Positions 3,412-33,298 are shown, numbered from the stretch's first letter. The stretch: 64,000 nucleotides of DNA from an uncultured Eubacteriales bacterium (GCA_964648465.1 CAZYMU010000001.1:56230-120229), one strand, 5' to 3'. The notes: generated by a model not told the origin, from the sequence alone. Numbers and translations are program-made.

Positions 3412-3619
3412 TAAGTGTAGAAAGATTAAAAAAATTTTACAAAGTAATGTTGGTGTAGGCAGGTTCGATTCATAAATAATTCGCATAAGATAGATAAAAA
3501 GCTAAAATTTTCATTTTGCTTTGACATTGGGATGGATATGTTTGACATCGAATATTTCATGTGCTATAAATTCTTATCCTGAAAAAAGAAGAATTTCAAG
3601 ACTTAATGTCGAGGGTTTC

Positions 3620-4285
3620 ATGAAAATTTTTGCGGTTATTGGTAAATCAAAAACTGGTAAGACGCGGTTGATAAAATTGCTTCTAGTGGAATTGAAAAAA
3701 CGCGGACATTCTGTTGCTGTTGTCAAACACTGTGCTCAGGGATTTGACTTGGATTCTGAAGGAAAGGATTCCTGGCAGTTCCTGGAGTCAGGATCTGATG
3801 GTGTTGTTGTAGCATCCCAAGATCGATTAGCAGTGTTCAAAAAAAAATTGGATGAAAAGGGCTTTTCAGAGATAGCAACAGAGTTTTTTAAAAATATTGA
3901 CTTTGTTTTTATAGAAGGCGGCAGTAAGGACAAAAAACTGAGAAAAATAGAAGTGCTACGGAAGGGGATAGCCGAGAAAGTAGAATGTTTTCCGAAAGAA
4001 CTTGCTGCTGTTGTTTCTGATGTGAAAGTTGCTGTAGATAAACCTGTATTTAATCATGATCAAATAACTGAGATTTCAAATTTTATTGAGAGCAGCATTC
4101 AGTACGAAGGGCCTCGTGTTTATTTGGAGATTGATGGAAAGCCTGTACGTCTGAATGCATTTGTAAAAAAGAATACAGAAAACATTATTTTAGGGATGAT
4201 TAAATCTCTAGATGGACTCCCGGAAAATCCGGAATGTTTAACCTTATCTATAATAAGAAAGGAGAAGAAGATTGAGAAAATTTAA
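3620..4285 (+). CDS. mobB: molybdopterin-guanine dinucleotide biosynthesis adapter MobB (with about 50-aa C-terminal extension)
   Basis: The internal Met opens MKIFAVIGKSKTGKTRLI (Walker A) followed by VVKH, typical of MobB. The tracked ORF 3521..4285 has an implausible N-terminal extension. It sits in the neighbourhood of mobA and a Mo-formate dehydrogenase. Confidence 0.65.
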   Translation: MKIFAVIGKSKTGKTRLIKLLLVELKKRGHSVAVVKHCAQGFDLDSEGKDSWQFLESGSDGVVVASQDRLAVFKKKLDEKGFSEIATEFFKNIDFVFIEGGSKDKKLRKIEVLRKGIAEKVECFPKELAAVVSDVKVAVDKPVFNHDQITEISNFIESSIQYEGPRVYLEIDGKPVRLNAFVKKNTENIILGMIKSLDGLPENPECLTLSIIRKEKKIEKI

Positions 4286-4892
4286 GAACTGGTCATGGTT
4301 ATTGCTTTTTGGCTCTCTTTGGGGGATAATAGAAGTTGCTGGAGGGGGAGTCTTATCTGAGTATAATATGCTTCATGTTTCTGTAATCCTTGCAGCCTGG
4401 GCATTCATAGTCATGGCTGTTGCAAGAGGGATAGTGAATAAACCAGGTTCATCGATCGTTATTGGGATTGTTGCAGTCATTTTTAAGCTGGCAAATGCAG
4501 CCCCGTTCTTCTGCCATCTTCTAGGGATTTTTGCCCTTGGTTTAGCATTTGATGTTTTTTCAAGTTTATTAATGAAGAATGAGAGAAAAATTTCTTTTCG
4601 GTTAAGTCTAACAGGTGCATTGAGTGCATATAGTGGATATGCGCTTTTTGCCATTATCATTACTTATATCGTTCAATATAAATACTGGATTGCTGGCGGA
4701 TTGCCAAAGGTGCTTGAACATATATTTGTTGGAGGTAGTTTAGCAGCAATAGGGGCTGTGGTGCTTGTTCCTTTAGGGTTCTGGATTGGAATAAATAGTG
4801 AGAATTTATTTGAGCGGCGGCCTGTATTGACTTATGCAGGAACTCTAATGGGAGTAGTTCTTCTGTGGACATTGGGAAGATTCGTAGGATAA
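4272..4892 (+). CDS. polytopic membrane protein of unknown function, co-transcribed between mobB and focA
   Basis: 206 aa with 5-6 predicted hydrophobic helices. Its start overlaps the mobB stop by 14 nt. No family recognised. Confidence 0.4.
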   Translation: MRKFKNWSWLLLFGSLWGIIEVAGGGVLSEYNMLHVSVILAAWAFIVMAVARGIVNKPGSSIVIGIVAVIFKLANAAPFFCHLLGIFALGLAFDVFSSLLMKNERKISFRLSLTGALSAYSGYALFAIIITYIVQYKYWIAGGLPKVLEHIFVGGSLAAIGAVVLVPLGFWIGINSENLFERRPVLTYAGTLMGVVLLWTLGRFVG

Positions 4893-4926: not shown

Positions 4927-5784
4927 ATGGCAATTGAATGTAAGAATCCAGCGACCATCGCAAGTAGTCTTGCTGATAGTGTGTGTGTGAAGAAAGTCAA
5001 CTTGAATTTTCTTAATCTTTCTATCCTTGGAATTTTTGCAGGGGCATTTATTGGTTTTGGTGCAGAGCTTGCAACCATTGTTGGGCATGATATGGGCAAA
5101 TTCGTCGGTGTAGGATTAACTAAGTTTATGATGGGTGCTGTCTTTAGTGTAGGCCTGATATTAGTGGTTATTGCTGGAGCAGAACTTTTTACTGGAAACA
5201 ATCTTATAGTTCTTGCGGTTCTTGATAAAAAAGTTTCTATCTGGGGTTTACTGAGAAACTGGGGTATTGTATATGTCGCCAATATTGTAGGTTCCCTTAT
5301 TCTTGTTGCTATCATGTACTACAGTAGATTGTGGGAAGGAGGAGGCCAGGCTATAGGAGTTTTTTCTTTAAAAATTGCAACTGCAAAAGCTAATCTAACT
5401 TTTTGGCCTGCGTTTTTCAGAGGGATTGGATGTAATTGGCTGGTATGTTTAGCAGTGTGGATGGCATTATCGGCTCGTCATACAGTGGGAAAAGTGTTTG
5501 CTATATTTTTTCCCATAATGGCATTTGTGGCTTCCGGGTTTGAGCATAGTGTTGCCAATATGTTTTTTATTCCTATGGGGATGGCGCTTAAAGAAATTCA
5601 GCCTATTGTAGCCGCCTCGGGTATAGCAGCTGAAAAGCTGCAGAATCTTGACCTTTTTGGATTTCTTGTTAGGAATGAAGTCCCTGTGACTCTTGGCAAC
5701 ATTGTAGGTGGTGCGTTTTTTGTTGGAGTTCTTTACTGGATTGCCTATGTAAGAAAGAGTAAAAAAGAACTAGAAGCAAAATAA
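4927..5784 (+). CDS. focA: formate/nitrite transporter family channel (FocA-like)
   Basis: 285 aa with the FNT signature region (WMALSARHTVGKVFAIFFPIMAFVASGFEHSVANMFFIP). Adjacent to the formate dehydrogenase operon. Confidence 0.8.
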   Translation: MAIECKNPATIASSLADSVCVKKVNLNFLNLSILGIFAGAFIGFGAELATIVGHDMGKFVGVGLTKFMMGAVFSVGLILVVIAGAELFTGNNLIVLAVLDKKVSIWGLLRNWGIVYVANIVGSLILVAIMYYSRLWEGGGQAIGVFSLKIATAKANLTFWPAFFRGIGCNWLVCLAVWMALSARHTVGKVFAIFFPIMAFVASGFEHSVANMFFIPMGMALKEIQPIVAASGIAAEKLQNLDLFGFLVRNEVPVTLGNIVGGAFFVGVLYWIAYVRKSKKELEAK

Positions 5785-5818: not shown

Positions 5819-6946
5819 TTAAAAAGTATAAATAGCACTAATCACAATTTGGTTGGTTTTTGCTTCATCGTCAAGATTGAGATATTGACTCAGGAAATTG
5901 CAATATTCAATACCCAATGAAACACTGCTTATAACATTGTATTTGAGCCCTGAAAAAATGGCTCTGGTTTTTTTGAGATTTCCTGATAATAATTGAGATT
6001 TATCTGTAAGGTCTTCCAAGGCGTATCCAAGCCAACTTTGGAAATTGTTCAATGAATATACAATTTCAGACCAGAACGCAGTTGCTTTTTTACCTTCAAA
6101 TTTATCTGCTTTTACGTTGTCATAAACATTAGAACGGGAAAGAAATACAGAGAGATTTTGTCCTTGGCCCAATTCTCCTTTGAATGTGAGATTTCTAGCA
6201 AATGGGATGATGCAATCAAGACTTAATCCAGCAATATCAACATCTGTTTCATAATCCTCTAGAGGATTTGTATAGTGCTCCCTGCCAAAAGTTGTGGACA
6301 AGCCTATTTTTATATTTCCATTATTTCCGAATTTCATACCAATACGTCCTTGAGTGATAGGCAAGCATGTCTTTGTTGCACCGGAAGAAGTGGGATCATT
6401 GAGGCTTACGGCAAAGTCAAACATATCAGATAACCAGGTGTAGCGGATTTGAGCTCTTCTAAAACCGAGGTTTCCTGTTTGCCAGAAATATCCGTTGGTC
6501 AACAAAGTAGTGGGGCCCAATGGAGAAAATACATCCCAATATTGCCCAAAAAGAAAAGAAGAATTTCTATTAGAAAGGCTGAAGTAGGCATGGCGAATCC
6601 GGAATTTCATTTGATTCCTACTAGTTCCATCATAGAGATCCCATTCAAAATGACCCTTAACTGTCCATCCATTTCCAAGAGAGAGTTTTGTCCATCTAAG
6701 ACCAAATCGACTGTTCATAGCAGTTAAATTAGTATTCCCTTCCTCTCCGAATTTAGCATAGCGGCAGGCAATTAGGCTGTTCATGGGATTATCCTGGTAT
6801 GTTCCATCAAGCTTTAGAAATCCATAAAAATCGAGTTTGAATTTTTCATTATCTACAAATCTGATAGAAGCCTTGCCCTGAAACGTAAAAATAAGCAGTG
6901 AAAATACTGTCAGAACAATAATTCCTAGTGCTGTTTTTTTTATCAT
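5819..6946 (-). CDS. outer-membrane beta-barrel (porin-like) protein
   Basis: 375 aa. Has an N-terminal signal peptide (MIKKTALGIIVLTVFSLLIFTFQG), alternating amphipathic beta strands, and a C-terminal aromatic Y-T-F end typical of OMPs. Confidence 0.45.
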   Translation of the reverse strand: MIKKTALGIIVLTVFSLLIFTFQGKASIRFVDNEKFKLDFYGFLKLDGTYQDNPMNSLIACRYAKFGEEGNTNLTAMNSRFGLRWTKLSLGNGWTVKGHFEWDLYDGTSRNQMKFRIRHAYFSLSNRNSSFLFGQYWDVFSPLGPTTLLTNGYFWQTGNLGFRRAQIRYTWLSDMFDFAVSLNDPTSSGATKTCLPITQGRIGMKFGNNGNIKIGLSTTFGREHYTNPLEDYETDVDIAGLSLDCIIPFARNLTFKGELGQGQNLSVFLSRSNVYDNVKADKFEGKKATAFWSEIVYSLNNFQSWLGYALEDLTDKSQLLSGNLKKTRAIFSGLKYNVISSVSLGIEYCNFLSQYLNLDDEAKTNQIVISAIYTF

Positions 6947-6996: not shown

Positions 6997-7659
6997 CTAT
7001 TCAGTACATGGAGAGATTAACCCTTTGTTTTGTAGAGAAAATTTATATTTTGTTATATCGAAATAGCATCGTTTCTTATTAGATCCGGAAAGGTGTGCTT
7101 TGATTTTATCAAGATCATCCGATTTATTTATATTGCACCAAAGGGAATCTTCAAAAAAATCTGCTGGAACAAATGCCATTTTAGTGTTCGGGATTATATC
7201 GATGACTCTCCGTTTTTTGGATCTGAGTGTTTCGATAATATTAGGAAGACAGGACTTGGAATAAATAGCAAATAGCGGCTCAAAACCTTTTTGTGATCGT
7301 GGAATGATGGCTTCGGCTTCTTGATCGTAGGTAATCAGTGTTTGAATAGAAGGCTCTGTGATAAACGGCATGTCGCAGGGGACAATAAAGGTGCGTTTAT
7401 AAGAGCTTTGACTCAAAGCCGTAGCAATTCCCTGAAGAGGACCCAGTCCTAGCATTTTGTCCGGGAAGATTGGAATATTCAGAAAGCTGTATGGTTTTGA
7501 GTCATTGGTAATGATGAAAACTTCATCCATCAGAGGGTTGATCATTCTTAATGTGTGCTCGATAATCGTTTCTCCTTTGATTTTGAGCAAGCCTTTTTCA
7601 ATGCCGCCAAGGCGGGTTGCTTTTCCCCCTGCGAGTATCGCTCCGCTTATATTCTGCAT
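6997..7659 (-). CDS. mobA: molybdenum cofactor guanylyltransferase MobA
   Basis: 220 aa. The N-terminus GAILAGGKATRLGG-EKGLL matches the MobA nucleotide-binding motif. Lies 38 bp downstream of the FDH operon. Confidence 0.75.
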   Translation of the reverse strand: MQNISGAILAGGKATRLGGIEKGLLKIKGETIIEHTLRMINPLMDEVFIITNDSKPYSFLNIPIFPDKMLGLGPLQGIATALSQSSYKRTFIVPCDMPFITEPSIQTLITYDQEAEAIIPRSQKGFEPLFAIYSKSCLPNIIETLRSKKRRVIDIIPNTKMAFVPADFFEDSLWCNINKSDDLDKIKAHLSGSNKKRCYFDITKYKFSLQNKGLISPCTE

Positions 7660-7697: not shown

Positions 7698-8687
7698 TTA
7701 TTGTTTTCCAAACCGATCGACTATTTCTTTTGTGACGGCTTTTATTCCTATATTGCTGGGACAGACTTCATCGCACCTCCCACAAAGGAAGCAAGTAACA
7801 TGCCCCCATCTATCAAGGTCGGCAACCAACTTATGATGGATTCTACGGCGTGTCCTTTGTCCCTCAAGCCCCATGGGATTGTGACCACTTGCTTCACGCA
7901 TAAACCCGTCAAGTTGACAGGAGTCCCATATCCTTTCACGCACGACTATTTCTTCAAAATTCAAATCATCAACATGAAAGCAAGTGCATGTTGGACATAC
8001 AAGATTGCAGCCTGTGCAGGCAATGCAGCGATTTGCGATTTCATCCCAAAACTTTTCTGTAACTCTATTTTGTGCAATAAGTTTAGAAGCTTCCATTAAA
8101 ATGTCCTTATCATTAGTGGGAAGGGCGTCTGATTCTTTATGAAGTGCTTCTAAAGAGGCAATTTCTGTACTGCAGACAAGAAGCTTTTCCAGGTCAGTTC
8201 CTATTTCTGTATATGGAACAACGATATATTTATCTCCGTCATACACAAGCTCAATATCACATTTACCTCCTGATATTTTAAGAAATTCGCCGTTTTTCCC
8301 GCATTTTCCCGAGACAACAAAGACAACAGAGTTATCTCTTTTTTTGAAATAAATATCATCGTGGTAGTCAGTAGAAAAAAATTTATCGATAAATTCAAGA
8401 CACTCTGCGTCCTCTGCTGTTAGGCCTACTACCATTATAGGTTTTTCAGGAGGTTCCGGGACTGTAAACTTTTTATCTATTCCGACAGTAAACATGGTTT
8501 CACGTTGGGGAAAGAAGACGGAGGTTGTTTTTTGAAGTATAAATCCTCCAGCAAGAGCTAACGGACCATCAGTGATTTTGCCAAGTGATCGTGTTCCATC
8601 ATGCAATTCGATGGGGACAAGCACATCGTATTCTGATTCACAAGTTTTAAAAAAAATTTCTAATTCCTTCAGAGTTGCAGCTTTCAT
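7698..8687 (-). CDS. iron-sulfur electron-transfer subunit, HydB/AsrA-like (two 4Fe-4S CxxCxxCxxxCP motifs)
   Basis: Carries CIACTGCNLVCPTC and CFLCGRCDEVCP cluster motifs in its C-terminal third. The start ATG at 8687 overlaps the upstream fdhA TGA stop (ATGA), with AAGGAG 7 nt upstream. The tracked ORF carries a 9-aa upstream extension. Confidence 0.6.
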   Translation of the reverse strand: MKAATLKELEIFFKTCESEYDVLVPIELHDGTRSLGKITDGPLALAGGFILQKTTSVFFPQRETMFTVGIDKKFTVPEPPEKPIMVVGLTAEDAECLEFIDKFFSTDYHDDIYFKKRDNSVVFVVSGKCGKNGEFLKISGGKCDIELVYDGDKYIVVPYTEIGTDLEKLLVCSTEIASLEALHKESDALPTNDKDILMEASKLIAQNRVTEKFWDEIANRCIACTGCNLVCPTCTCFHVDDLNFEEIVVRERIWDSCQLDGFMREASGHNPMGLEGQRTRRRIHHKLVADLDRWGHVTCFLCGRCDEVCPSNIGIKAVTKEIVDRFGKQ

Positions 8688-10726
8688 AATAATCTCCTTA
8701 TTTTTGCGGCACATACTTTGTATTCAGGTATTTTTGCTTCTGGGTCAAGAGCGTTATTTGTTAGGATGTTTGCCGCACCTTCACTAAAATGAAAGGTCAT
8801 AAAGATCACGCCAGGAATAACCACATTAGTAACTCGTGCCATTACCTTTATTTCTCCTCGACGAGTCGCTACCATAATATACTCTCTATCATGGATTTTT
8901 AACTGGGAGGCATCCTCCGGATTGATTTCAACATAAGGGAAGCGTTCTTCACGGTCTAGTAATTTCGAACGGCGTGTCATTGTACCGGTATGAAAATGGA
9001 AGTAACATCGTCCAGTAGAAAGTACAAAAGGGTACTCCTCATCAGGCAGTTCGGCTGGAGGTTTGTAAATTGCAGGAGAAAACAGCCCCAGTCCTCGGGC
9101 AAACTTGTCTACATGAAGGATAGGTGTTCCGGGATGACCCTTATCCGGGCAGGGCCACTGCAGGCCAACTTGATCTATTCGGTCATATGTAATGCCGGCA
9201 TAACTTGGAGTAACTTCATTTATTTCATCCATAATTTCCTTTGCAGAATCATACTGCATGCCGTCATAGCCTGCCCGTTTGGCGATATCGCACAGAATTT
9301 TCCAGTCTGTTCTACTTTCTCCTGGAGGTTCGATGGCTTTACGTACTCTTTGAACACGCCTTTCGGTTGAGGTAAAAGTACCATTTTTTTCCGCAAAACA
9401 GGAAGCAGGAAGAATAACATCTGCTAATTCTGAAGTCTGTGTGTGGAAAATATCTTGAACTACCAAAAAATCAATCTTTTCTAGTGCTCCTCTTACGTGA
9501 TTTTGGTCAGGATCGGACAGCATAGGATTCTCTCCCATAACGTACAAAGCTTTAAGATTTCCTTCTGCTGCAGCGTTGATGGCAGTTGTCACTGTTAAGC
9601 CAACATTACCAGGTAGATCTTTGATATTCCATGCTTTTTCAAATTTTGTACGAATCTTTTCATCGGTAACCTTTTGATAGCCGCTGTAAACATTAGGAAG
9701 AGCACCTAAATCACAAGCGCCCTGGACATTGTTTTGACCGCGAAGCGGATTTACACCAGTACCTGGTCGGCCTATATTCCCAGTCAGCATGACGAGATTG
9801 GCACAAGATTTTACATTATCGACACCATGGGTGTGTTGTGTAATTCCCATAGAATAAACAATCATTGCTCTATCAGCTTTTGAAAATATCCGCGCTGCTT
9901 TGACAATATCTTCTGCCTTAAGGCCTGTAATTTCCGCTGATATAGCAGGTGGAAAATTTTCTACGGTATTCTTTAATTCTTCGTAGTTTTCAGTCCGTTT
10001 TGCGATAAATTGCTTATCTTCCAGTCCTTCTTTTATGATGACGTGCATCATACCATTTAGAAGAGCAACATCGGTTCCATTTTTATGGCGGAGATGAATA
10101 TCGGAGTAGCTAGCAAGTCTGATCTTTCGATTATCTGCAACAATTAATTTAGCCCCACGTTCAATTACTGAATTCATTATTCTTGTACCGATAAGAGGGT
10201 GTTGTTCAGTGGTATTTGAGCCGATAACAAGGAAACAATCAGACTTTTCCATACAGGAGATGGAATTTGTCATGGCGCCTGAACCAAAAGTACTGGCTAG
10301 GCCTGCTACAGTAGATGAATGGCAGAGCCTGGCACAATGGTCGACATTATTAGTTTTAAATACGGCTCTGGCAAGTTTCATCATTAAGTAATTTTCTTCA
10401 TTTGTTGTTTTGGCAGAAGAGAAAAACATAACTGAGTCATTTCCATATTTTTCTTGAATTTTTTTTAGGTTTCTTACAATGAGATTTAATGCTTCTTCCC
10501 AGGATGCTCGCTCAAAATTCCCGTTTCTACGGATCAACGGGAATTTGAGTCGATCAGGGTGGTTTACAAAATCAAATGCATTCCATCCCTTCACACAAAG
10601 TCTTCCTTGGGAAACAGGATGGGAAAGACTTGGCTCTACACCTATAATATTCTCGTTTTCATCAGATAGAAGATAAAACATGCAGCCAGTACCGCAGTAA
10701 GGGCATGTAGTAAGTGTCTTTTTCAT
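8684..10726 (-). CDS. fdhA: molybdopterin (bis-MGD) formate dehydrogenase catalytic subunit, Cys-type (FdhF-like, no selenocysteine)
   Basis: 680 aa. The N-terminus TCPYCGTGC is the 4Fe-4S site of Mo-bisPGD enzymes. TNNVDHCARLCHSSTVAGL aligns to the FdhF active-site segment NNVDCCARV-U-HGPSV with Cys replacing Sec and the His retained. A formate channel gene is adjacent. Confidence 0.8.
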   Translation of the reverse strand: MKKTLTTCPYCGTGCMFYLLSDENENIIGVEPSLSHPVSQGRLCVKGWNAFDFVNHPDRLKFPLIRRNGNFERASWEEALNLIVRNLKKIQEKYGNDSVMFFSSAKTTNEENYLMMKLARAVFKTNNVDHCARLCHSSTVAGLASTFGSGAMTNSISCMEKSDCFLVIGSNTTEQHPLIGTRIMNSVIERGAKLIVADNRKIRLASYSDIHLRHKNGTDVALLNGMMHVIIKEGLEDKQFIAKRTENYEELKNTVENFPPAISAEITGLKAEDIVKAARIFSKADRAMIVYSMGITQHTHGVDNVKSCANLVMLTGNIGRPGTGVNPLRGQNNVQGACDLGALPNVYSGYQKVTDEKIRTKFEKAWNIKDLPGNVGLTVTTAINAAAEGNLKALYVMGENPMLSDPDQNHVRGALEKIDFLVVQDIFHTQTSELADVILPASCFAEKNGTFTSTERRVQRVRKAIEPPGESRTDWKILCDIAKRAGYDGMQYDSAKEIMDEINEVTPSYAGITYDRIDQVGLQWPCPDKGHPGTPILHVDKFARGLGLFSPAIYKPPAELPDEEYPFVLSTGRCYFHFHTGTMTRRSKLLDREERFPYVEINPEDASQLKIHDREYIMVATRRGEIKVMARVTNVVIPGVIFMTFHFSEGAANILTNNALDPEAKIPEYKVCAAKIRRLL

Positions 10727-11580
10727 ATAGCACCTCTCAGATTGCTGATTTCATTAAGCCAAAAAACCGGACCGTCTAAACAAACATAAAGATTATCAAT
10801 CGAGCAGTGTCCGCACTTACCAACTCCACATTTCATGTAGCGCTCGAGTGAAACAACGATTTTGTCCTCTGTCAGACCTTTTTTCTTCAATTCTTGGATG
10901 ACAAATTTATACATAACAGGTGGGCCAACGATAACAGCAATAGTGTTGTCTATATTGATAGTTAAAGGAGGTATTAATTTTGTGATGCGACATTTCTCTA
11001 CTTCATCATAACGGATGCTTTCCGGATCTGCGTCCACACAGCAAAAACAGGCTAGTTCCTCACAATGCTTCCATTGTTCGACTTCATGCTTGAAGAGTTG
11101 AAACTCAGGAGTTTTGGCCCCAGAGAGAATCGTGACGTTTTTGAATTCTTCAATGTGGTCTTCACAGTACTGGATGAGAGAACGCATAGGAGCCAGGCCT
11201 AGCCCTCCTGCAATAAGAATAAGTTCCTTTCCTTTCATTTTTTCTGTGTCAAAAGAATTGCCAAAAGGTCCGCGAATGCCGATCTTATCATTGACTTTAA
11301 GTTTGTACATAGCATTTGTTACGCTTCCAACATTACGAACCGATAGTTCAAAATATCCCTTACGTGTGGGGGAACTGCAAACAGATATAGGAACTTCTCC
11401 GACTCCAATGATTGAGACCTGAACGAATTGCCCAGGTTTTTGTCCCAAATCTTTCCCTCCAGGTATTTCAATACGATAAAGATTTTCTGTTGGGGTTAGC
11501 TCGGATATGTGGGTTATGCTGCACATAGTCGGCACATAGAGAGATTTATCTGAAAGACATGCACTTGTTTTTGAGTCCAT
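10723..11580 (-). CDS. FAD/NAD(P)-binding 2Fe-2S oxidoreductase subunit (HydG/AsrB/PyrK-like)
   Basis: 285 aa with a ferredoxin-NADP-reductase-like fold signature. The C-terminal cysteine motif CGVGKCGHC...C matches the PyrK/HydG family. Its stop overlaps the fdhA start. Confidence 0.65.
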   Translation of the reverse strand: MDSKTSACLSDKSLYVPTMCSITHISELTPTENLYRIEIPGGKDLGQKPGQFVQVSIIGVGEVPISVCSSPTRKGYFELSVRNVGSVTNAMYKLKVNDKIGIRGPFGNSFDTEKMKGKELILIAGGLGLAPMRSLIQYCEDHIEEFKNVTILSGAKTPEFQLFKHEVEQWKHCEELACFCCVDADPESIRYDEVEKCRITKLIPPLTINIDNTIAVIVGPPVMYKFVIQELKKKGLTEDKIVVSLERYMKCGVGKCGHCSIDNLYVCLDGPVFWLNEISNLRGAI

Positions 11581-12339
11581 TACAATCCTCCCTTTTTTTA
11601 TTTTAATTCTGTTGGTGCAAAAAGCTTATTATTAATTATTTTTATAAGCCGAAAAACAATTTTACATTTTTTAGAAAGAGCAATCAAAAGAATTTTTCAA
11701 TTATATTTTTTAAATTGTACTAATGGGTTTGAAATGGATTCATAGCAGTTTATGAAGGCAGAACGTACTCCACCCCCTGAACAGCCTCAACTGAATATGG
11801 CAGCTGAGAAAAGAGTTGAATATCTATAAAAGCGAAGTCCTAAATCAGCATTTAATGGTGAACTCTACTATGTAGGCGCTTTTTACAGACTAATTCACTG
11901 AAAATTCTCTCTCCTTAGAATTTTTTATTAACTGGATGTGTATTTTCTAGGTATTATCATGAATAAATCAACTCAGAGGATGAAAATTTGATGAAATTCA
12001 GAGAAAATCGTAAGTTCAAAACAAATGGCTCTGATATTATAGGTATTTTTATCGACATTGCTGTGGAGAAAGGAGGATTCACGCTCCAGATTGATGATGT
12101 CCGATTTAAATAATAGCGGAGGATGGGTAATATCGTGGTATAGACAGCAATAAAAAATGATGCTGAAGCGTAATACTATAATGAACAATGAAATTCCCAT
12201 ACTTAAAAGAATCTAAGCTTATGGGTAAACCAAGTTTGCTAGTTTTATCTTTTGTATGCATTTACTTACCAGAGTAAGGATATTATCATAAGTTTTCGGA
12301 TTGCTGATTGCCGGGATAAGCTATATTTAATCGGTGTTG

Positions 12340-12735: not shown

Positions 12736-14688
12736 CTATTTAAGTATATTGGTTTTTATCCCAAGCTCGATATAGCGCCCTCTCCATGGAAATCCGGGTT
12801 CAGAATAAATATAATAGTCAAAGACATTAGTGATTTTGATAAACAATTCAGTTCGTTTAAACTGGAAGGAAATAATTGTATCCAGGTTAAAATAAGAATG
12901 AATATCCAGCAGTTCATTTGATTGATAATCGAGCCAGGATGATGAAGATGCTGCCAGGCCCATAATTACAATCCTGAATCGTTGGGAAGGGTAGATAGTA
13001 CAATCAAAATTTAAGCTGTGCCTTGGGAGAGCATCTAGTGGCCGGTCGTCACTTTTGTTCTTGTGGTCAAGGAAAGTGTAGTTTATAGTTGTTGAAAGCC
13101 ATGGAAAAGCTTTTTGAAATTGAAGTTCAAATCCATTAATATAAGCTTCTGCGATATTAAAATATCTACGGCGGAAATCGAACTCCGGAAGACGGAGGCT
13201 GTCTATCATGTCTTTGAAGCTGGTCATAAAGACAGAGCCTGTAAGGAAGAATATTTTATTGTATGTAAAACCTAATTCGCAGTTACTTCCTGATTCACTC
13301 AGGAGGTCTGGGTTTCCTGATGAACTCGAGTACATGGAACGCATAGAGGGAAATTTTGATTTCTTGGAAAAGGAGAGATGGAGCTCTATATATTCCAAAG
13401 GGGAATATTTAAGTCCGATAAGAGGATTTACTTTTGATGCATTTTTTCCAATAAACTTGTCTAGATAATCATAACTTAATCCCACTACAAGTTTCCATCT
13501 CTTGAAAAAAGATATATGATCTTCGATCCCGGCTGAAAATGTAGCTTGGTTGTATTTATCCCAGGATTCTCCCTCATCATCCTGAGTTCGAGCTACATCT
13601 CTCTTATAATTGATGCTGAATTTTAATGAGTTAGAAGAACTCATAGCAAGGTCTGCAAGAGTGAAGAGACCTAAAACAGAGTTGTCAAAAGTGCTTTCGA
13701 AGAGGCGCTGAATCATTTTTGGATCTTTGAATTGGTCGAGAGTATTGTCATAGTGGACAAAATAACCTCGAAAGCGGAGTGTGGATTTTTCCCCCAGGGC
13801 AGTATAACCACCTGCATTCAGTGTATAACGGTCCCAGTTTTTAAAACGCCAGTACCGTGGTTTATAAGCATCAAGTTGTGATGGCATAGCATAATTGGAT
13901 TTGTATATTCCTCCGTTAAAGAGAATTTCAGTGCTGTTTGATGGGTAATAGTAAATTTTTGTATTAAGATTTATTCTTTCATATTCTGTGTTTGACCTTT
14001 CGATCCTATTCCTTTCATCTTGATCTGGGAAATAAAATCCATCTGAATCCTGATAAAGCATATTTCCTGCAAAGGCAAAGCGCTTCAGTTGAAATACTGA
14101 ATTTAAACCCAGGCTGCGTGTATTTTTTTCTCCATATGATGTGTGAAACGATAGGGTTGGTTTGACAGAAGGTCTGCTTGTTATAACATTAACTATTCCA
14201 CCTAGGGTATTAGGACCGTATAGAACAGATGATGGCCCTTTGGTGAGTTGAAGGGAATCAATCCCATAGGCGGATATTGTTTTTAGATCAAACGTACTGT
14301 AGTAAGGCTCATAAACAGGAATCCCATCGATTAACAATGCAATCCGTTTTGAATCCATGCCCCTGAGCTTTAACGTGTATGTGGATTTATCTCCAAAAGT
14401 CACCATCACTCCTGGAGCGTATCTAATAGCTTCTGAAAGGTCGAGTGGTTTCATGTGTTCAATCTTTGTATGACCCAGTCTTGTTACCGTTGAAATAGGG
14501 AGGTCTCTAGGAGCTTCGGCTACTACAAGAATTTCTTCCGTAATCTTTAGTGTCTTTTTTGATTTTGTCTTCTTTTCATCTTCTTTTTGTTTTTCTTGGG
14601 AAAAAGTTAAACAAGGTAATAAAATTAGTGCCCAAATGACAAAATTAATAATGGTTTTTTTGAGAGGGTGATTTGATGAATTATTCAT
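12736..14688 (-). CDS. TonB-dependent outer-membrane receptor
   Basis: 650 aa. Has a signal peptide, an N-terminal plug region (ISTVTRLGHTKIE...DLSEAIRYAPGV) and a long beta-barrel with repeated aromatic-rich strands. Confidence 0.7.
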   Translation of the reverse strand: MNNSSNHPLKKTIINFVIWALILLPCLTFSQEKQKEDEKKTKSKKTLKITEEILVVAEAPRDLPISTVTRLGHTKIEHMKPLDLSEAIRYAPGVMVTFGDKSTYTLKLRGMDSKRIALLIDGIPVYEPYYSTFDLKTISAYGIDSLQLTKGPSSVLYGPNTLGGIVNVITSRPSVKPTLSFHTSYGEKNTRSLGLNSVFQLKRFAFAGNMLYQDSDGFYFPDQDERNRIERSNTEYERINLNTKIYYYPSNSTEILFNGGIYKSNYAMPSQLDAYKPRYWRFKNWDRYTLNAGGYTALGEKSTLRFRGYFVHYDNTLDQFKDPKMIQRLFESTFDNSVLGLFTLADLAMSSSNSLKFSINYKRDVARTQDDEGESWDKYNQATFSAGIEDHISFFKRWKLVVGLSYDYLDKFIGKNASKVNPLIGLKYSPLEYIELHLSFSKKSKFPSMRSMYSSSSGNPDLLSESGSNCELGFTYNKIFFLTGSVFMTSFKDMIDSLRLPEFDFRRRYFNIAEAYINGFELQFQKAFPWLSTTINYTFLDHKNKSDDRPLDALPRHSLNFDCTIYPSQRFRIVIMGLAASSSSWLDYQSNELLDIHSYFNLDTIISFQFKRTELFIKITNVFDYYIYSEPGFPWRGRYIELGIKTNILK

Positions 14689-14861: not shown

Positions 14862-15410
14862 CTATTTCTTTCCGGCAAGTGCTGTTGTCATTTTTTGTAT
14901 TAGATTATTGTCTTTAAGCCAGAAAATATTCGCTTTTTCTTTAGTTTTAGAAAGAAATTGATCGAGAATGCTTTCCCTTAGAACAATAAGAATATTTTGA
15001 TGCTGATTAAAAAGGAAGCAAGCAGCTTTCCATAGTCCTTTCTCTTTCATTTCTAACGGACCAATTTCATCTATTATGGTTAGATCGCAGTTCTGAAAAT
15101 CAAGTATAGATTCTTCTGCTTTTTTCAACCCTTCCGGGATAAAATAATATTGACCCGCCTTTTCCCATTCAGGCTTTCCATCCAATCTTGCCAGTGCAAA
15201 TAATTCTTCTGATTTTATATTAAACCCGTTATATCCTTTATGATCTTTGAATTCATAAAAAGCAGGGCTTAATAGTCCGTTTATTAATAATCCTTTAGTT
15301 TTTAATGTGTCGCACATTTTCTGAAGGAAAGAGGTTTTTCCTGAATGGATTTTTCCTGTAAGAATATAGATGTTTTTATTATTAATATTGAATGAATTAG
15401 AATTTAACAT
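14862..15410 (-). CDS. P-loop NTPase, THEP1/DUF2478-like
   Basis: 182 aa. Has Walker A (GKIHSGKTS) and Walker B (LTIIDEIGPLE) motifs. Divergently adjacent to the aldehyde:ferredoxin oxidoreductase. Confidence 0.45.
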   Translation of the reverse strand: MLNSNSFNINNKNIYILTGKIHSGKTSFLQKMCDTLKTKGLLINGLLSPAFYEFKDHKGYNGFNIKSEELFALARLDGKPEWEKAGQYYFIPEGLKKAEESILDFQNCDLTIIDEIGPLEMKEKGLWKAACFLFNQHQNILIVLRESILDQFLSKTKEKANIFWLKDNNLIQKMTTALAGKK

Positions 15411-15687: not shown

Positions 15688-17847
15688 ATGTCTGTCAAGA
15701 ATATGAAAATCAAACATAAGCTGTTAAAAGAATATACTTATGAATTAAGCGAATTGTACAGAGGTTATGCTAATAGAACGCTTTATGTGAACCTTTCCGA
15801 TAATACAATAAAAGAAAAACCTGTTTCAGAAGAGATGAAAGAAAAATTCATCGGCGGCAAAGGATTTGGCCTACGTTTGTTATGGGATGCTACAAAAGAT
15901 GATACTAAATGGGATGACCCTGAAAATGAAATTAATATTGCTGCAGGCCCAATCGCAGGTATTACCCAATATTCAGGTTGTGGAAAATCTCTTGTTGTTT
16001 CAATCTCTCCTACTACTGATTCAATTATGGATTGTAATGTGGGCGGATATTTCGGGCCATTTTTAAAGTTTGCAGGATTTGATGCACTCGAAATTCAAGG
16101 AAAGGCTGAAAAAGATGTCATTGTTGTTATTGATGGAACGAAAGGAACAGTGAGAATAGAGGAAGCACCTGAAGAGGCTGTGGACAGCCATGTTTTAGCG
16201 AAACATCTGACTGATATGTATGCTGATGATGAGAATGATAAAAGAAATGTTGCTGTAGTTTCATCAGGAAAAGCAGCAGAGTATGCATTAATAGGAATGC
16301 TGAATTTCAGTTGGTATGATGTAAGAAGAAAAAAATGCAGGTTGAAACAGGCTGGAAGGGGTGGCATTGGGACAGTATTCAGGAATAAAAAAATCAAAGC
16401 TCTTGTCGCTAAATCGAGCGGAGTAAAAGGTGATATGAATCATGTTGCTGATATGAAAGCGATTAGAGAAAGAGGAAGAAATTTCAGCAGGGAAATGAGG
16501 GAACTTGATGATTCTCAAGCTCGGATGAGGACAGTAGGAACTGCCCATCTTGTTGAAATAATGAATGATTATGATCTATTGCCAACGTATAATTTTAAAT
16601 TTGGTTCTCATCCCGAAACGAAGAAGATTGATTCAAAAGCATTGGAAGCAAAATTTACTCATGGTCTTCCTGATGGATGCTGGCTTGGCTGCACGATGTC
16701 ATGCTGTAAAGCGGTTGATGGTTTCGAATTAAAGACAGGCCCTTATAAAGGTCAAAAAGTCATTGTGGATGGTCCTGAATATGAAACCGTTGGAGGCCTT
16801 GGCTCTAACTCTGGAATATTTGATCCTGATCATGTTATCGAATGCAATTTTTATTGTGATACATATGGAATTGATACAATTTCGTTCGGGACATCAACAG
16901 CTTTTGCAATGGAATGTTTTGAAAAAGGAATTCTCAATAAGGAAAGAACAGGGGGATTGAAATTCAACTTCGGAAATGCCGATTCTGTGATGGAAGCACT
17001 TCACCAGATGGCAAGGGGAGAGGGTTTTGGTGTTGTTTTGGGATCCGGAGTCAGGAAGATGAAGGAAAAATTCATTAAAGAATATGGAGCAGATCCAAAA
17101 TTTCTTCAGGATGTTGGAATGGAGAACAAGGGATTGGAATATTCTCAATATGTGGCAAAGGAATCATTGGCACAGCAGGGCGGTTTTGCAATGACTAACA
17201 AAGGTCCGCAGCATGATGAGGCCTGGCTGATATTCATGGATATGGTCAATAAGCAGATCCCTACGTTTGAAGATAAAGCAGAAGCTCTACATTATTTTCC
17301 AATGTTTAGAACATGGTTCGGATTAATGGGATTATGCAAGCTGCCTTGGAATGATGTAGAGCCTGCAAATAATGCAGAGACAGATGAGCCTGCAAAGGTT
17401 CCTGAACATGTAGATAATTATGTGACAATTTTCAATGCTGTGACCGGTAAAAGTATAGACAAATACGAATTGGTCAGGCAGTCAGAACGGGTTTACAATT
17501 TCCAGAGGATATTTAACTTGAGAAGGGGATTCGGGAAGAGGGAAAATGATTCTCAGCCTTACAGGGCTGCAGGTCCGGTAACTGTTGAGGAATATGAATC
17601 AAGAAAAGATAGGTATGACAAACAGATGGAAGAGATTATCGGTGTTGACCCTGAAGGGAAAACTACTGAAGAAAAAATTGCCATTACTAGAAAGTACAGA
17701 GAGAATGTTTATGAAAAATTGCTTGATGCGGTTTATAAAAGGAGAGGCTGGACAAAGAATGGCATCCCTAGAATCGAGCACTTGAAAGAACTTGGAATGG
17801 ATCTACATGAGCTTATTGAAGTTGTTAAACCCCATCTAGAAAAATGA
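15688..17847 (+). CDS. aldehyde:ferredoxin oxidoreductase family (tungsto-/molybdopterin enzyme, AOR)
   Basis: 719 aa. The N-terminal domain of the AOR type (RTLYVNLSD, GGKGFGLRLLW) and the conserved central DGPEYETVGGLG segment are present. The RBS GGGAG precedes the ATG. Confidence 0.75.
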   Translation: MSVKNMKIKHKLLKEYTYELSELYRGYANRTLYVNLSDNTIKEKPVSEEMKEKFIGGKGFGLRLLWDATKDDTKWDDPENEINIAAGPIAGITQYSGCGKSLVVSISPTTDSIMDCNVGGYFGPFLKFAGFDALEIQGKAEKDVIVVIDGTKGTVRIEEAPEEAVDSHVLAKHLTDMYADDENDKRNVAVVSSGKAAEYALIGMLNFSWYDVRRKKCRLKQAGRGGIGTVFRNKKIKALVAKSSGVKGDMNHVADMKAIRERGRNFSREMRELDDSQARMRTVGTAHLVEIMNDYDLLPTYNFKFGSHPETKKIDSKALEAKFTHGLPDGCWLGCTMSCCKAVDGFELKTGPYKGQKVIVDGPEYETVGGLGSNSGIFDPDHVIECNFYCDTYGIDTISFGTSTAFAMECFEKGILNKERTGGLKFNFGNADSVMEALHQMARGEGFGVVLGSGVRKMKEKFIKEYGADPKFLQDVGMENKGLEYSQYVAKESLAQQGGFAMTNKGPQHDEAWLIFMDMVNKQIPTFEDKAEALHYFPMFRTWFGLMGLCKLPWNDVEPANNAETDEPAKVPEHVDNYVTIFNAVTGKSIDKYELVRQSERVYNFQRIFNLRRGFGKRENDSQPYRAAGPVTVEEYESRKDRYDKQMEEIIGVDPEGKTTEEKIAITRKYRENVYEKLLDAVYKRRGWTKNGIPRIEHLKELGMDLHELIEVVKPHLEK

Positions 17848-17883: not shown

Positions 17884-19467
17884 CTAAATATCTTTTTGTG
17901 ACCATTTTCCATCAATGAAACGCCACATTCTGCCTGTAGGATTCATGTTTTGTAATTCAAGAGGAAGTCTATGCTGACGAACATTATCATAGCATTCCCT
18001 GGAAGCAAATCGTATAAGAGAAGCAGGGATACCTACTGATGTAAATCCTGGATGTCCAGTTGAGGGAAAAGGACCCCCATGGTGCATGGCAGGGGAAACC
18101 GCAACTCCTGTAGGCATTTTGTCATTAAGTAACCTTCCTACTTTTTCCCGGAGGATGAGTTCGACCTGACTGTAAAGGATATCGTCCAGATCCTTACTGT
18201 GACTGTAAATAGTTCCCGTGAGATTGCCGTTTAAGAGAGTCGTTATTTTTTTTAACTGATTAAAATCTTTAGCGAATACAAAAAGAGAAATAGGTCCAAA
18301 TGCTTCTATCTGGAGTTCTTCTGGATGATTTAAAAATTTCTCTCCAGAGGTGCGTAAAAGTGTGTTTAAGAAACAATAGCCTTTACCAGGAACTTCTTTG
18401 GCACCGGTTACGATTTTAGCACCGTATTGTTGCATGCGTCTAATCGATGAAATGAGTTCATTAAGAACTTTTTCATTTAGAAGAATGCCTGGTAAACCTG
18501 ATTTGAAGTATTCCATAGTTTTTTGCAGAAACGATTCTCCTTTTTCGTCTTGAAGAAGAATAATAAGACCGGGCTTGGTACAAAACTGGCCCACACCTAG
18601 AGTGCATGAATTATAAAATTCAAGTGCAATTTCTTCGAGGCGTTCTTTTAGGGCACCAGGTAATATTATGACTGGATTGATACTAGACATCTCCACATAT
18701 ATGGGTTTGCCAGCTCTGTCTGCTGCTTCTTTTAATCGAAGTCCAAAGTTTTTGCTGCCAGTAAAGGCTGTAGCTCCAACTAGAGGGTGAGAAACCAGTT
18801 TTATGCAGTCTTCCTGTCTCAAGTGATAAAACATCTGGACTGATGCTTGAGGTAAACTGCTTGTTTTTAAAGCCATTAGAGCAGCTTCTGCAAAGATTTT
18901 TGTTGTTTCTGGGTGACCTTGATTTGCAATTGCAATTACTGGATTTCCAGCAGCAATCGCAGACGCAAAATCTCCTCCAGCACAAGAGTTGAAAGCAAAA
19001 GGAAAGTTGTTAGGACTAAATATGGCAACTGGGCCTGGTAAAGGGGCAAATTTTGAGCGTATTTTAGCCTTTGTGTCGATTGTTGCAGAACACCAGGATT
19101 TGTCTCGAGCAGCGTATGCGGCTTGGCGGAGCTGGTCGATGGTTCTTGGCAGTTCTACGGATCTTAAGCGGGATTCAGCAGGCAGTGCTGCTTCCAGAGC
19201 TGCTGTCTTGACGAGTTCTTCAGAACGGAAATTAATATTATCAGCAAATGCTTCTAGAAAATTGGCAATATTATCAGAAGATTCTGAATGCAATTCCTCA
19301 ATAACCTTATGAGAAGCCTCGAGTGCTTTCTCAATATCAGAAAGAAGAGAAACAGGATATTGATTGTCAAGTTTGCTTTTTGTCTCTGGATTTATTGCTG
19401 AAAAGAGTTTTGCTAAGGAAGATACTTTTTCCCATATTCCATCTATTAAAACAGGCTGAATTGACAT
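17884..19467 (-). CDS. aldehyde dehydrogenase family protein
   Basis: 527 aa. The ALDH motifs are present: FTGSKNFG (NAD-binding), VEMSSINPVII (catalytic Glu region) and TLGVGQFCTKPG (catalytic Cys). Confidence 0.7.
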   Translation of the reverse strand: MSIQPVLIDGIWEKVSSLAKLFSAINPETKSKLDNQYPVSLLSDIEKALEASHKVIEELHSESSDNIANFLEAFADNINFRSEELVKTAALEAALPAESRLRSVELPRTIDQLRQAAYAARDKSWCSATIDTKAKIRSKFAPLPGPVAIFSPNNFPFAFNSCAGGDFASAIAAGNPVIAIANQGHPETTKIFAEAALMALKTSSLPQASVQMFYHLRQEDCIKLVSHPLVGATAFTGSKNFGLRLKEAADRAGKPIYVEMSSINPVIILPGALKERLEEIALEFYNSCTLGVGQFCTKPGLIILLQDEKGESFLQKTMEYFKSGLPGILLNEKVLNELISSIRRMQQYGAKIVTGAKEVPGKGYCFLNTLLRTSGEKFLNHPEELQIEAFGPISLFVFAKDFNQLKKITTLLNGNLTGTIYSHSKDLDDILYSQVELILREKVGRLLNDKMPTGVAVSPAMHHGGPFPSTGHPGFTSVGIPASLIRFASRECYDNVRQHRLPLELQNMNPTGRMWRFIDGKWSQKDI

Positions 19468-31887: not shown

Positions 31888-32490
31888 GTGATGGAAGAAA
31901 ATGAACAAAACATTATTGACCGAATCTGCCGAGGCGATACTGCAGCATTTCAAAGACTGGTGGAGAGGTACAAGAAGAAGATTTATTTCCTCGCCTATGA
32001 TATTCTCGGCGATCACCACGAAGCTGAAGATATCTCCCATGAAGTATTCATCAAAGTGTTTCGTTCCCTTAAGAATTTCCGCAGGAATTCAAAAATGAGC
32101 TCCTGGATTTATCAAATTACTGCTAATACCTGCATAGATGCTCTGCGCAAAAAGAAATCAAAACCCCAAGTAAATCTGGAGGATTTCAATCATGTTTCTC
32201 TACAGGACAATCTTGCTGGAGGCGGCACTCGTGTCCAAAATCCTGAACTTAGTGCTGAGGCATCTATCATGCAACGTAGGATTCAAAATGCCTTGTATAA
32301 AGTCACCCCAAGAGAGAGAGCAGTGTTTGTGATGCGTCATTACAATGATTTAGAGATAAAAGAGATTGCAGAAGTCCTGAACGTTTCTTCAGGGACGGTC
32401 AAGAGCCTGCTTTTCCGTGCTTTAAAAAAAATGCGAAAAGAGCTTTCAACTCATCGGGGAAAGTCCTCAATGGAGGCTAACTATGACTGA
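31888..32490 (+). CDS. ECF-type RNA polymerase sigma-70 factor
   Basis: 200 aa. Sigma-70 region 2 (YFLAYDILGDHHEAEDISHEVFIKVF...WIYQITANTCIDALR) and region 4 HTH (EIAEVLNVSSGTVKSLLFRA) are present. Confidence 0.8.
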   Translation: MMEENEQNIIDRICRGDTAAFQRLVERYKKKIYFLAYDILGDHHEAEDISHEVFIKVFRSLKNFRRNSKMSSWIYQITANTCIDALRKKKSKPQVNLEDFNHVSLQDNLAGGGTRVQNPELSAEASIMQRRIQNALYKVTPRERAVFVMRHYNDLEIKEIAEVLNVSSGTVKSLLFRALKKMRKELSTHRGKSSMEANYD

Positions 32491-33298
32491 TTGTAAAAAA
32501 TGCAAGGCCCTGTTTTCCGATTCATTGTATGGGGAATTGAAAGCCGAGCAAAAGCAGTTCCTCGAAAATCACCTCCGGGATTGCCCGAAGTGCCAATCCG
32601 AATTCGTTGAATTAACTGCAACTGTAAGATTTATGGAAAAAAGAGTCCGTCCTGAGCCCGGACAAGATTTCTGGAATAGCTACTGGGGGCGGCTGTCCGA
32701 TCGGATAGAAAAAGAAGCAGCTTTTCAACCTCAAAAGGAAAAATGGTGGAAGGCTTTGAGCCGCACTATACAAACACCACCCAGTTGGGCTTATCAGGGT
32801 GCAGCGGCAATTGTACTGATTGTTATAGGAATTTTTATAGGCAGGGTGCTATTTACCCAGGGTGTCCCGCAGGTTCCACCCACACTGTCATCAGGAAATC
32901 TCACCCAGACAGGACCAGGGATCGAACTCACACAGCGTACCCACAATTATATAGAACGCTCAAAACTGATGCTGCTTGCAATCGTCAATTTCGAGCCGGA
33001 AACAGAAGATCCCTTTGCCTTGAATCTGCCTTATCAACAGCAGGTGTCAAGAGAATTGGTACAAGAGGCGGGCTTGCTGAAAAAGAAACTTGCCGGATTC
33101 CGCCAGAGAAGGCTGCAGGAGCTTATTGTTGACCTTGAGGTGATACTGCTTCAGATAGCCAATCTGGAGTCAGAGCCTGATATGTCGGTTATCAAGATGA
33201 TTAAGGACGGCGTAGAAAGCCGTGGAATTCTGTTGAAAATAAATCTAGCGGACATCCGCCAGTCTATTAATGAAAGGAATAAATCCAAAAGTCTATAG
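32483..33298 (+). CDS. zinc-finger (HxxxCxxC) transmembrane anti-sigma factor
   Basis: Overlaps the sigma gene stop by 8 nt. The N-terminus has CKKC ... HLRDCPKCQ (ZAS-like) and a single TM helix (AAAIVLIVIGIFIG). Confidence 0.55.
   Translation: MTDCKKCKALFSDSLYGELKAEQKQFLENHLRDCPKCQSEFVELTATVRFMEKRVRPEPGQDFWNSYWGRLSDRIEKEAAFQPQKEKWWKALSRTIQTPPSWAYQGAAAIVLIVIGIFIGRVLFTQGVPQVPPTLSSGNLTQTGPGIELTQRTHNYIERSKLMLLAIVNFEPETEDPFALNLPYQQQVSRELVQEAGLLKKKLAGFRQRRLQELIVDLEVILLQIANLESEPDMSVIKMIKDGVESRGILLKINLADIRQSINERNKSKSL

Follow-up and report, generated by a model that had tools for sequence, protein, structure and literature searches.

Fdh3 of Thermococcus onnurineus is a characterised NADP-dependent tungsten formate dehydrogenase (FDH), which is reversible and also reacts with ferredoxin (PMC8965080), and it indicates that modular NADP-linked FDHs of such a kind work. 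A cluster encoding FdhA, HydB and HydG was described in the 2025 genome and proteome paper on Desulfurivibrio dismutans, with a proposed role in NAD(P)H-linked conversion of CO2 and formate (PMC12142623), and this was the only explicit mention of FdhA together with HydB and HydG found in the literature. HydB-like and HydG-like subunits are otherwise represented by the beta and gamma subunits of soluble hydrogenase I (SHI, sulfhydrogenase I) of Pyrococcus furiosus and by their counterparts AsrA and AsrB. The locus described here lies in a stretch of 64,000 nucleotides (nt) from an uncultured Eubacteriales bacterium (GCA_964648465.1, CAZYMU010000001.1:56230-120229), referred to as the window, and all coordinates are counted from its first letter. 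It carries a three-gene operon in which an FDH catalytic subunit (alpha) is encoded together with a HydB-like (beta) and a HydG-like (gamma) partner, and which, judging from its sequence, probably specifies a soluble, cytoplasmic, heterotrimeric FDH acting as a reversible NAD(P)+-linked formate/CO2 oxidoreductase.

Three consecutive open reading frames (ORFs) were found on the minus strand in the order gamma-alpha-beta. Related loci were collected in a genome scan using one genome per species and two peptide patterns; this gave 89 relatives, from which 80 loci were kept, and the counts are lower bounds. The features of the operon are as follows.

10723..11580, minus strand: gamma subunit, 285 amino acids (aa), HydG/AsrB/PyrK-like, with FAD-binding and NAD(P)-binding regions and a C-terminal [2Fe-2S] site.
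8684..10726, minus strand: alpha subunit, 680 aa, catalytic subunit of a Cys-type FDH with Mo- or W-bis(molybdopterin guanine dinucleotide) (bis-MGD), FdhF/FdhA type, no twin-arginine translocation (Tat) signal.
7698..8687, minus strand: beta subunit, 329 aa, HydB/AsrA-like electron-transfer protein with several Fe-S clusters.
10723..10726, minus strand: ATGA overlap of the gamma stop and the alpha start, read in the sequence; an overlap of -4 was present in 55 of 66 related loci.
8684..8687, minus strand: ATGA overlap of the alpha stop and the beta start, with an AGGAG ribosome-binding site upstream, read in the sequence; an overlap of -4 was present in 60 of 78 related loci.
11659..11687, minus strand: candidate promoter of the sigma-70 type, TTGATT-17-TAAAAT, from a consensus scan (9 of 12 matches; such sites were not enriched over shuffles).

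The three ORFs and both overlaps were thus read in the sequence as the original prediction had placed them. A mechanical ORF list puts the beta start at 8714 (7698..8714). The shorter form is preferred because the ATG at 8687 has its ribosome-binding site 6 nt upstream and overlaps the alpha stop, and because homologues begin at the same position. The junction at 8687-8684 reads AGGAGATTATTATGA, in which both the beta ribosome-binding site and the overlapping ATG can be seen, and the gamma ATG is preceded by a GGGAGG ribosome-binding site. Such tight ATGA couplings would fit a balanced synthesis of the three subunits.

By its domains, profile scores and active-site residues, alpha is assigned as a genuine Cys-type FdhF/FdhA. 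All three expected Pfam domains matched (Molybdop_Fe4S4 PF04879, Molybdopterin PF00384 and Molydop_binding PF01568), and the score against the Fdh-alpha equivalog TIGR01591 (899.8 bits) is above the cut-off of 666.25. The nearest relatives of alpha in the PDB are all FDHs, namely FdhF of the hydrogen-dependent CO2 reductase (HDCR; 7qv7_S, 798 bits), the F420-linked FDH (9t1s_L, 787 bits), 7bkb (741 bits) and FdhH of Escherichia coli (1aa6, 612 bits). The active-site segment NNVDHCARLCHSS, which corresponds to alpha residues 126-138, aligns with CARV-U-HGPS of E. coli FdhH, so that CARLCHSS stands over it, and LRGQNNVQGACD stands over the Arg333 segment. In this alignment Cys135-His136 and Arg329 of alpha occupy the positions of Sec140-His141 and Arg333 of FdhH, in agreement with the claim in the original prediction that a Cys-type, FdhF-like subunit carries its active-site segment on the Sec-His site. 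Ligands for one [4Fe-4S] cluster are present as C8/C11/C15/C44. Across the family, the catalytic codon specifies Cys in 70 of 71 alpha genes and is TGA (Sec) in one, at locus L004; this interchange of Cys and Sec is as expected of an FDH active site. No Tat signal was seen when the N-terminus of alpha was read for one, and the enzyme is therefore predicted to be cytoplasmic.

The strong secondary similarity of alpha to nitrate reductases raises the question of whether it could be another enzyme of the DMSO reductase family, for example an assimilatory nitrate reductase with a flavoprotein donor. Alpha scored 574.8 bits against the NasC model and 338 bits against that of NapA, and NapA was also found among its PDB relatives (371 bits). 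However, both model scores are far below their cut-offs (1100 and 904, respectively) and only the Fdh-alpha cut-off was exceeded; in addition, the Cys/Sec-His dyad and the Arg are present, one homologue has Sec at the catalytic position, genes for FdhD and for FNT channels co-localise with the operon, and the nearest solved proteins are FDHs without exception. A nitrate reductase or similar enzyme is therefore extremely unlikely, and a grouping of alpha with the nitrate reductases, which the original prediction had named as a refuting outcome, is not what these results show.

Gamma contains the Pfam domains FAD_binding_6, NAD_binding_1 and DHODB_Fe-S_bind and aligns over its full length with the gamma subunit of P. 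furiosus SHI (9nez_C, 201 bits), a subunit that oxidises NADPH. The two have in common the motifs GVGEVPISxCSSP, AGGLGxAPxRS and MKCGxGKCGHC...C, the last of which provides the cysteines C251/C256/C259/C267. The scores of gamma against curated equivalogs were all below the cut-offs: PRK08345 (275 against 395 bits), AsrB (244.5 against 288.6), ShyC (222 against 600) and HydG (209 against 650). A distant relationship to the small subunit of NfnI was also detected (46 bits).

Beta matched the Pfam domain Fer4_22 (88.7 bits), and here too the equivalog scores were all below the cut-offs, with 118.9 against 323.15 bits for AsrA, 83.8 against 690 for ShyB and 77.6 against 750 for HydB. By sequence it matches SHI beta in the C-terminal third only. 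An AlphaFold (AF2) model was made with 61 homologues as input (pLDDT 91), and when it was compared with the PDB using Foldseek the only full-length match was to SHI beta (9nf0_B/9nez_B; TM 0.77, E 1.6e-21, about 22% identity). Twelve cysteines are invariant in beta (143, 221, 224, 227, 231, 234, 236, 257, 299, 302, 305 and 309), and these are laid out as two ferredoxin-type CxxCxxCxxxCP motifs, a CPTCTC...DSCQ element and C143; the pattern CxxCxxCxxxCPxCxC...DSCQ...CxxCxxCxxxCP is common to beta and HydB. Two [4Fe-4S] clusters had been predicted for this subunit, but the twelve invariant cysteines fit three clusters rather than two, and a third cluster is probably carried by beta. The N-terminal domain of beta comprises about 200 residues.

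The proposal that the partners are HydG/AsrB/PyrK-like and HydB-like is borne out, as their only solved relatives are the gamma and beta subunits of SHI. They are not standard FdhB-type proteins: the F420-linked FdhB (9t1s_M) shares only a ferredoxin motif with beta (19.7 bits), and no NuoE/NuoF, NfnI-like flavoprotein or F420-type FdhB families were seen among the matches of beta and gamma beyond generic ferredoxin motifs. Assignment of the partners to HydBG or AsrAB by profile searches, which had been suggested, holds for the fold and the motifs but does not extend to equivalog membership. Beta and gamma are accordingly best described, from fold and motifs, as an FDH-linked branch of their own which would work like HydBG and AsrAB without belonging to those families.

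The lineages reached by the genome scan include Aminicenantes, Vicinamibacteria, 21 metagenome-assembled genomes (MAGs) of Planctomycetota type, Coatesbacteria, Sumerlaeota, Omnitrophota, Nitrospirales, a Bacillota MAG, a Dongiaceae MAG and Gammaproteobacteria; the remaining loci, about 45, come from Desulfuromonadales, Geobacter and unclassified deltaproteobacterial genomes. Among the carriers is a cultured organism, Pelotalea chapellei DSM 13688 (locus L042), in which the operon was confirmed. Where the locus left room for the gene in question, alpha was upstream of beta in 76 of 78 loci, and gamma was upstream of alpha in all 64. The three-gene FDH operon is confirmed as real and beyond chance, given the very high family scores and the recurrence of the arrangement in about 80 independent genomes, and its design is conserved across many bacterial phyla, Acidobacteriota among them. 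The original prediction called this an uncommon FDH architecture; none of the characterised enzymes found has it, but among genomes, with at least 80 loci, it is no rarity.

A close relative is locus L001 of Ca. Aminicenans sakinawicola, which is syntenic with the window and 92.8% identical to it in DNA over 8.3 kb. Comparison of window positions 12025-12276 with L001 positions 1322-2569 shows an indel between these close relatives, in which about 1.25 kb of L001 is missing from the window. The extra segment of L001 encodes, on the opposite strand and between a NifU-like gene and the FDH operon, a 311-aa protein judged by eye to be NHL-repeat-like. Because an opposite-strand gene separates the NifU gene from gamma in L001, the FDH genes are taken to be a separate operon for which a promoter of its own is expected.

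The depth of the family was examined through beta. In a large protein collection 727 beta homologues were found, the best 120 of which are 53-89% identical, and the named sources include Sumerlaeota, Coatesbacteria, Planctomycetota, Hydrogenedentes, Schekmanbacteria and Desulfuromonas versatilis. Many of these homologues carry the JGI label 'sulfhydrogenase subunit beta (sulfur reductase)'. When 1.84 billion representatives were searched exhaustively, 1992 matches were obtained at E<=0.001, 1342 of them at E<=1e-10 and only 44 at E<=1e-30, and the scores step down from 375 and 327 bits to 243 bits. Gamma-alpha-beta operons are still the setting of the representatives with 40%, 38% and 35% identity, so that the FDH-linked branch reaches deeper than the tight group of sequences close to the window protein. 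A 32%-identical homologue has another gene directly after it, an arrangement that may resemble the gene order of AsrAB and HydBG, in which beta is followed by gamma. Two further distant homologues (P0127 and P0132) lie on short contigs, and their gene context was uninformative.

The genes that accompany the operon were surveyed by clustering 739 neighbouring ORFs of the 80 loci, and the recurrent ones were confirmed with Pfam. A MobA-like gene was found near beta in 33 loci, at a median of 563 nt downstream and, for 39 of its 40 copies, on the strand of the operon. Other recurrent neighbours encode MoeA (19 loci), a protein with P-loop and helix-turn-helix domains (16), an FNT channel (11; 9 of the 10 placed copies on the same strand and typically just upstream of gamma), FdhD (11), MoaA (8), a MOSC-MoaB protein (8) and MoaC (5). 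Motifs of the large subunit of NiFe-hydrogenases were looked for in all 739 ORFs and none were found, and neither a hydrogenase gene nor an AsrC partner turned up in the 80 loci or in that part of the window which was annotated (1-48.8 kb).

In the window itself, the following genes adjoin the operon.

6997..7659, minus strand: MobA-like molybdenum cofactor guanylyltransferase, 38 nt downstream of beta (NTP_transf_3, 118 bits).
5819..6946, minus strand: porin-like outer-membrane protein, 375 aa, the last gene on this strand (weak match to Porin_4, 30.9 bits against a cut-off of 27; no NCBIfam match).
4927..5784, plus strand: FNT-family channel, FocA-like, convergent with the operon (Form_Nir_trans, 278 bits).
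4272..4892, plus strand: polytopic membrane protein, 206 aa, family unassigned.
3620..4285, plus strand: MobB (Pfam MobB, 105 bits; TIGR00176, 122 bits against a cut-off of 76.2).

The minus-strand genes had been described as a continuation of the operon into mobA and a porin-like gene, and a MobA-like and a weakly Porin_4-like gene do follow on the same strand. The MobA-like protein scored below the cut-offs of the MobA equivalogs (112 against 151.85 bits and 117 against 164 bits). The porin-like gene is kept only in the close relative L001 (95%) among the 80 loci, and a link to the uptake of formate or of oxyanions is speculative. The genes that the operon was said to face, mobB, a membrane protein and a focA-like channel, are likewise all present on the plus strand, and an HD-domain gene belongs to the same convergent group. 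For MobB, the mechanical ORF begins with a TTG at 3521 and the MobB domain starts from the Met encoded at 3620. The channel passed the fnt subfamily model TIGR00790 (248.4 bits against a cut-off of 232.3) but stayed below the FocA equivalog TIGR04060 (233.9 against 290.1). As FNT genes recur beside FDH genes, we infer that formate is its substrate.

No Pfam or NCBIfam match was obtained for the 206-aa membrane protein even at E<=5. Homologues of about 206-220 aa are found near FDH or molybdenum cofactor (Moco) genes in L001, L009 (9739-10371), L013 (7323-7982) and L030 (about 9650-10140), which are loci of Aminicenantes and Planctomycetota, and in L009 and L013 the homologue is followed by a small P-loop protein. 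This membrane protein may be involved in the handling of Mo or W.

Taking together the families, folds, motifs and catalytic residues and the conserved, translationally coupled synteny that are established here, the following route can be proposed. The oxidation of formate would take place at Mo- or W-bis-MGD, with Cys135 of alpha as the ligand and with the aid of His136 and Arg329, and the electrons would leave through the single N-terminal [4Fe-4S] cluster of this subunit. They would then pass through the two or three [4Fe-4S] clusters of the HydB-like beta to the [2Fe-2S] cluster and the FAD of the HydG-like gamma, which would reduce NAD(P)+. Reversibility is expected, and NAD(P)H could then also drive the reduction of CO2 to formate. 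MobA and MobB would provide the guanine dinucleotide of the cofactor, and the FNT channel would carry formate across the membrane. In its build, the complex appears to combine the NAD(P)H:acceptor oxidoreductase part of group 3b hydrogenases and anaerobic sulfite reductase with FdhA, which would stand where those enzymes have the hydrogenase dimer or AsrC. What is inferred is the assembly of the complex, the sequence in which the clusters follow one another, the pyridine nucleotide as partner, the physiological direction and hence the route from formate through Mo/W, FeS and FAD to NAD(P)+.

Several points weigh against the proposed NAD(P)+-linked heterotrimer. The assembly of the complex and its acceptor are deduced from homology and synteny only, and a preference for NAD or NADP is not readable from the sequence. 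Beta and gamma fall below every curated cut-off for HydBG, ShyBC and AsrAB, and their properties may consequently differ from those of the models. No purification, assay or structure of an FDH with HydBG-type partners was found in the literature, and the D. dismutans cluster is weakly expressed (PMC12142623). In addition, an orphan beta gene is present in L058 and in L063. Both are Desulfuromonadales MAGs, in which a beta homologue of about 50% identity (L058 675-1649 and L063 6001-6942) has no adjacent alpha or gamma; these orphan genes may be second copies or the result of rearrangements.

A tentative case can be made that the same enzyme works in vivo chiefly in the direction of NAD(P)H-dependent CO2 reduction and not as a formate oxidiser, in which case fermentative reductant would leave the cell as formate through the FNT channel (interspecies transfer) or enter C1 assimilation. 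FNT channels are bidirectional, which would permit such an export. The oxidation of formate with NAD(P)+ is favourable, whereas the reduction of CO2 by NAD(P)H is endergonic at standard conditions (about -430 mV against -320 mV) and would require very low concentrations of formate. Genes pointing to formate assimilation, for example those for formate-tetrahydrofolate ligase or the Wood-Ljungdahl pathway, were not seen in the annotated part of the window, which also speaks against this direction. On the other hand, FDHs of this type are reversible and Fdh3 of T. onnurineus reduces CO2 with NADPH (PMC8965080), and this is the direction proposed by the authors of the D. dismutans paper (PMC12142623). 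Furthermore, the window comes from a close relative of Ca. Aminicenans sakinawicola, and a related Aminicenantes genome was described as fermentative, without an identified route to formate (PMC4897734).

In a different proposal, the beta-gamma module brings in a second acceptor or donor, so that the enzyme would be a bifurcating or confurcating FDH with ferredoxin, or a formate:(poly)sulfide oxidoreductase. This appears unlikely. Sulfur-reductase activity was historically ascribed to the beta-gamma part of sulfhydrogenase, and many homologues bear the public 'sulfur reductase' label given above, but in SHI this activity is commonly considered non-physiological. The probable third cluster of beta and its N-terminal domain would give room for a second partner, and the distant kinship of gamma to the NfnI small subunit points the same way. 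However, there is a single flavin site and no NfnB/GltD-like or NuoF-like bifurcating subunit, and no genes for ferredoxin or sulfur metabolism are conserved beside the operon, where the conserved neighbours are those for the formate channel and for Moco. A precedent for a reaction with ferredoxin as well is offered by Fdh3 of T. onnurineus (PMC8965080). We likewise doubt the more specific form of this idea, that the HydB-like subunit is not a passive wire and that its extra cluster and N-terminal domain give it ferredoxin or polysulfide as a second redox partner; if it were true, the operon would stand for a new enzyme class, widespread in anaerobic sediments, that couples formate to energy conversion or to sulfur reduction.

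Upstream of gamma, a gap of 760 nt is followed by a NifU-like gene and then by the gene for a TonB-dependent outer-membrane receptor (12736-14688, minus strand), which lies behind a Moco/tungsten cofactor (Tuco) riboswitch (RF01055, 14681-14801, minus strand, 75.3 bits). The P3 stem of this riboswitch is missing, and the P3-less variant correlates with Tuco metabolism (PMC2408646). The ATG of the receptor, at 14688, is inside the riboswitch match, and the 3' strand of P1, AAAGGAG, is the ribosome-binding site of the receptor, which suggests that translation of an outer-membrane uptake system may be controlled by the cofactor. No paper joining a Moco riboswitch with a TonB-dependent receptor was found.

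Control of the FDH operon by the riboswitch was considered and rejected, as the only riboswitch in the window precedes the receptor and not the operon, and it is also disfavoured by the opposite-strand gene of L001, which lies between gamma and the NifU gene that follows the receptor. Rfam scans of 23 related loci gave no Moco motif.

Beyond the riboswitch lie an NTPase_1 gene (THEP1-like, 14862-15410, minus strand), a gene of the aldehyde:ferredoxin oxidoreductase (AOR) family with AFOR_N and AFOR_C domains (15688-17847, plus strand) and an aldehyde dehydrogenase gene (17884-19467, minus strand). The AOR family is the tungsten-type aldehyde:ferredoxin oxidoreductase, and its gene is 4 kb from the FDH operon. 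The riboswitch, the AOR group, mobA and mobB and the FDH genes together form a gene island related to Mo/W, which extends from about 2.8 to 19.5 kb. The P3-less riboswitch and the AOR-family gene hint at a possible use of tungsten by the organism, with no direct bearing on the FDH. Elsewhere in the window, and unrelated to the FDH, three genes for sigma factors of the extracytoplasmic function (ECF) type lie within 9 kb (31888-33298, plus strand; 39078-40125, minus strand; 40322-40912, plus strand), two of which are adjoined by zf-HC2 anti-sigma genes.

The operon thus represents a conserved class of soluble FDH or CO2 reductase, found in at least 80 species-level genomes of about ten named lineages and in hundreds of metagenomic homologues. 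Its predicted chemistry is unsurprising, and modular, NAD(P)-linked metal FDHs were already known in kind; it is the electron-transfer module that is unlike those of the characterised FDHs compared here. Among cultured organisms, the carriers are P. chapellei DSM 13688, with its confirmed operon, and D. versatilis, for which the beta homologue only was found. An NAD(P)H-linked CO2 reductase of the Cys type, and so free of selenium, would be of interest for the conversion of formate and CO2, should the enzyme prove to be one. There is also a consequence for annotation, as hydBG has been counted as a marker of S(0) reduction in at least one metagenomic study (PMC9326234); given this use and the 'sulfur reductase' labels, FDH-linked copies would inflate the inferred potential for sulfur reduction. 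In evolutionary terms, one beta-gamma module appears to have been put to use with three catalytic partners, namely a hydrogenase, a sulfite reductase and a formate dehydrogenase, which would be a case of modular evolution.

Compared with known systems, the partners are most like those of P. furiosus SHI (group 3b NiFe; 9nez/9nf0), as gamma is alike from end to end and beta is alike in its full-length fold, and the presumed role as an electron wire between NAD(P)H and Fe-S clusters is the same; a structure with bound NADPH exists (PDB 9nf0). However, the catalytic partner here is FdhA and not the NiFe alpha/delta dimer, and the catalytic gene stands between those of its partners, in the order gamma-alpha-beta. 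With AsrABC the domain architecture is shared, AsrA being the best curated model for beta and AsrB the second-best for gamma, but there is no gene for the siroheme protein AsrC, and its place as partner is taken by a molybdopterin enzyme.

On the catalytic side, FdhF of the Thermoanaerobacter kivui HDCR (7qv7), the F420-linked FdhA (9t1s, 7bkb) and E. coli FdhH (1aa6) have the same domain order and active-site residues as alpha, and the T. kivui protein is of the Cys type as well. Their partners, in contrast, are HycB-type ferredoxins with an [FeFe] hydrogenase, the F420-reducing FdhB and formate hydrogenlyase (FHL), respectively, none of which is of the HydBG or AsrAB type. More generally, FdsABG-type (NuoE/NuoF), HDCR, FHL and F420 enzymes all use modules other than a HydBG-like one. 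The D. dismutans cluster specifies the same three gene products, a likeness drawn from annotation and not from sequence, and its locus-tag order of HydG, HydB, FdhA suggests a different gene order. Fdh3 of T. onnurineus is likewise a cytoplasmic enzyme in which a Cys-type FdhA feeds Fe-S subunits and a NADP+-reducing flavoprotein, and a formate transporter gene is part of its cluster; its flavoprotein, however, has been modelled on P. furiosus NfnI (PDB 5JCA) and is combined with two small ferredoxin-like subunits, whereas the corresponding positions in the operon described here are taken by the HydG-like and HydB-like proteins.

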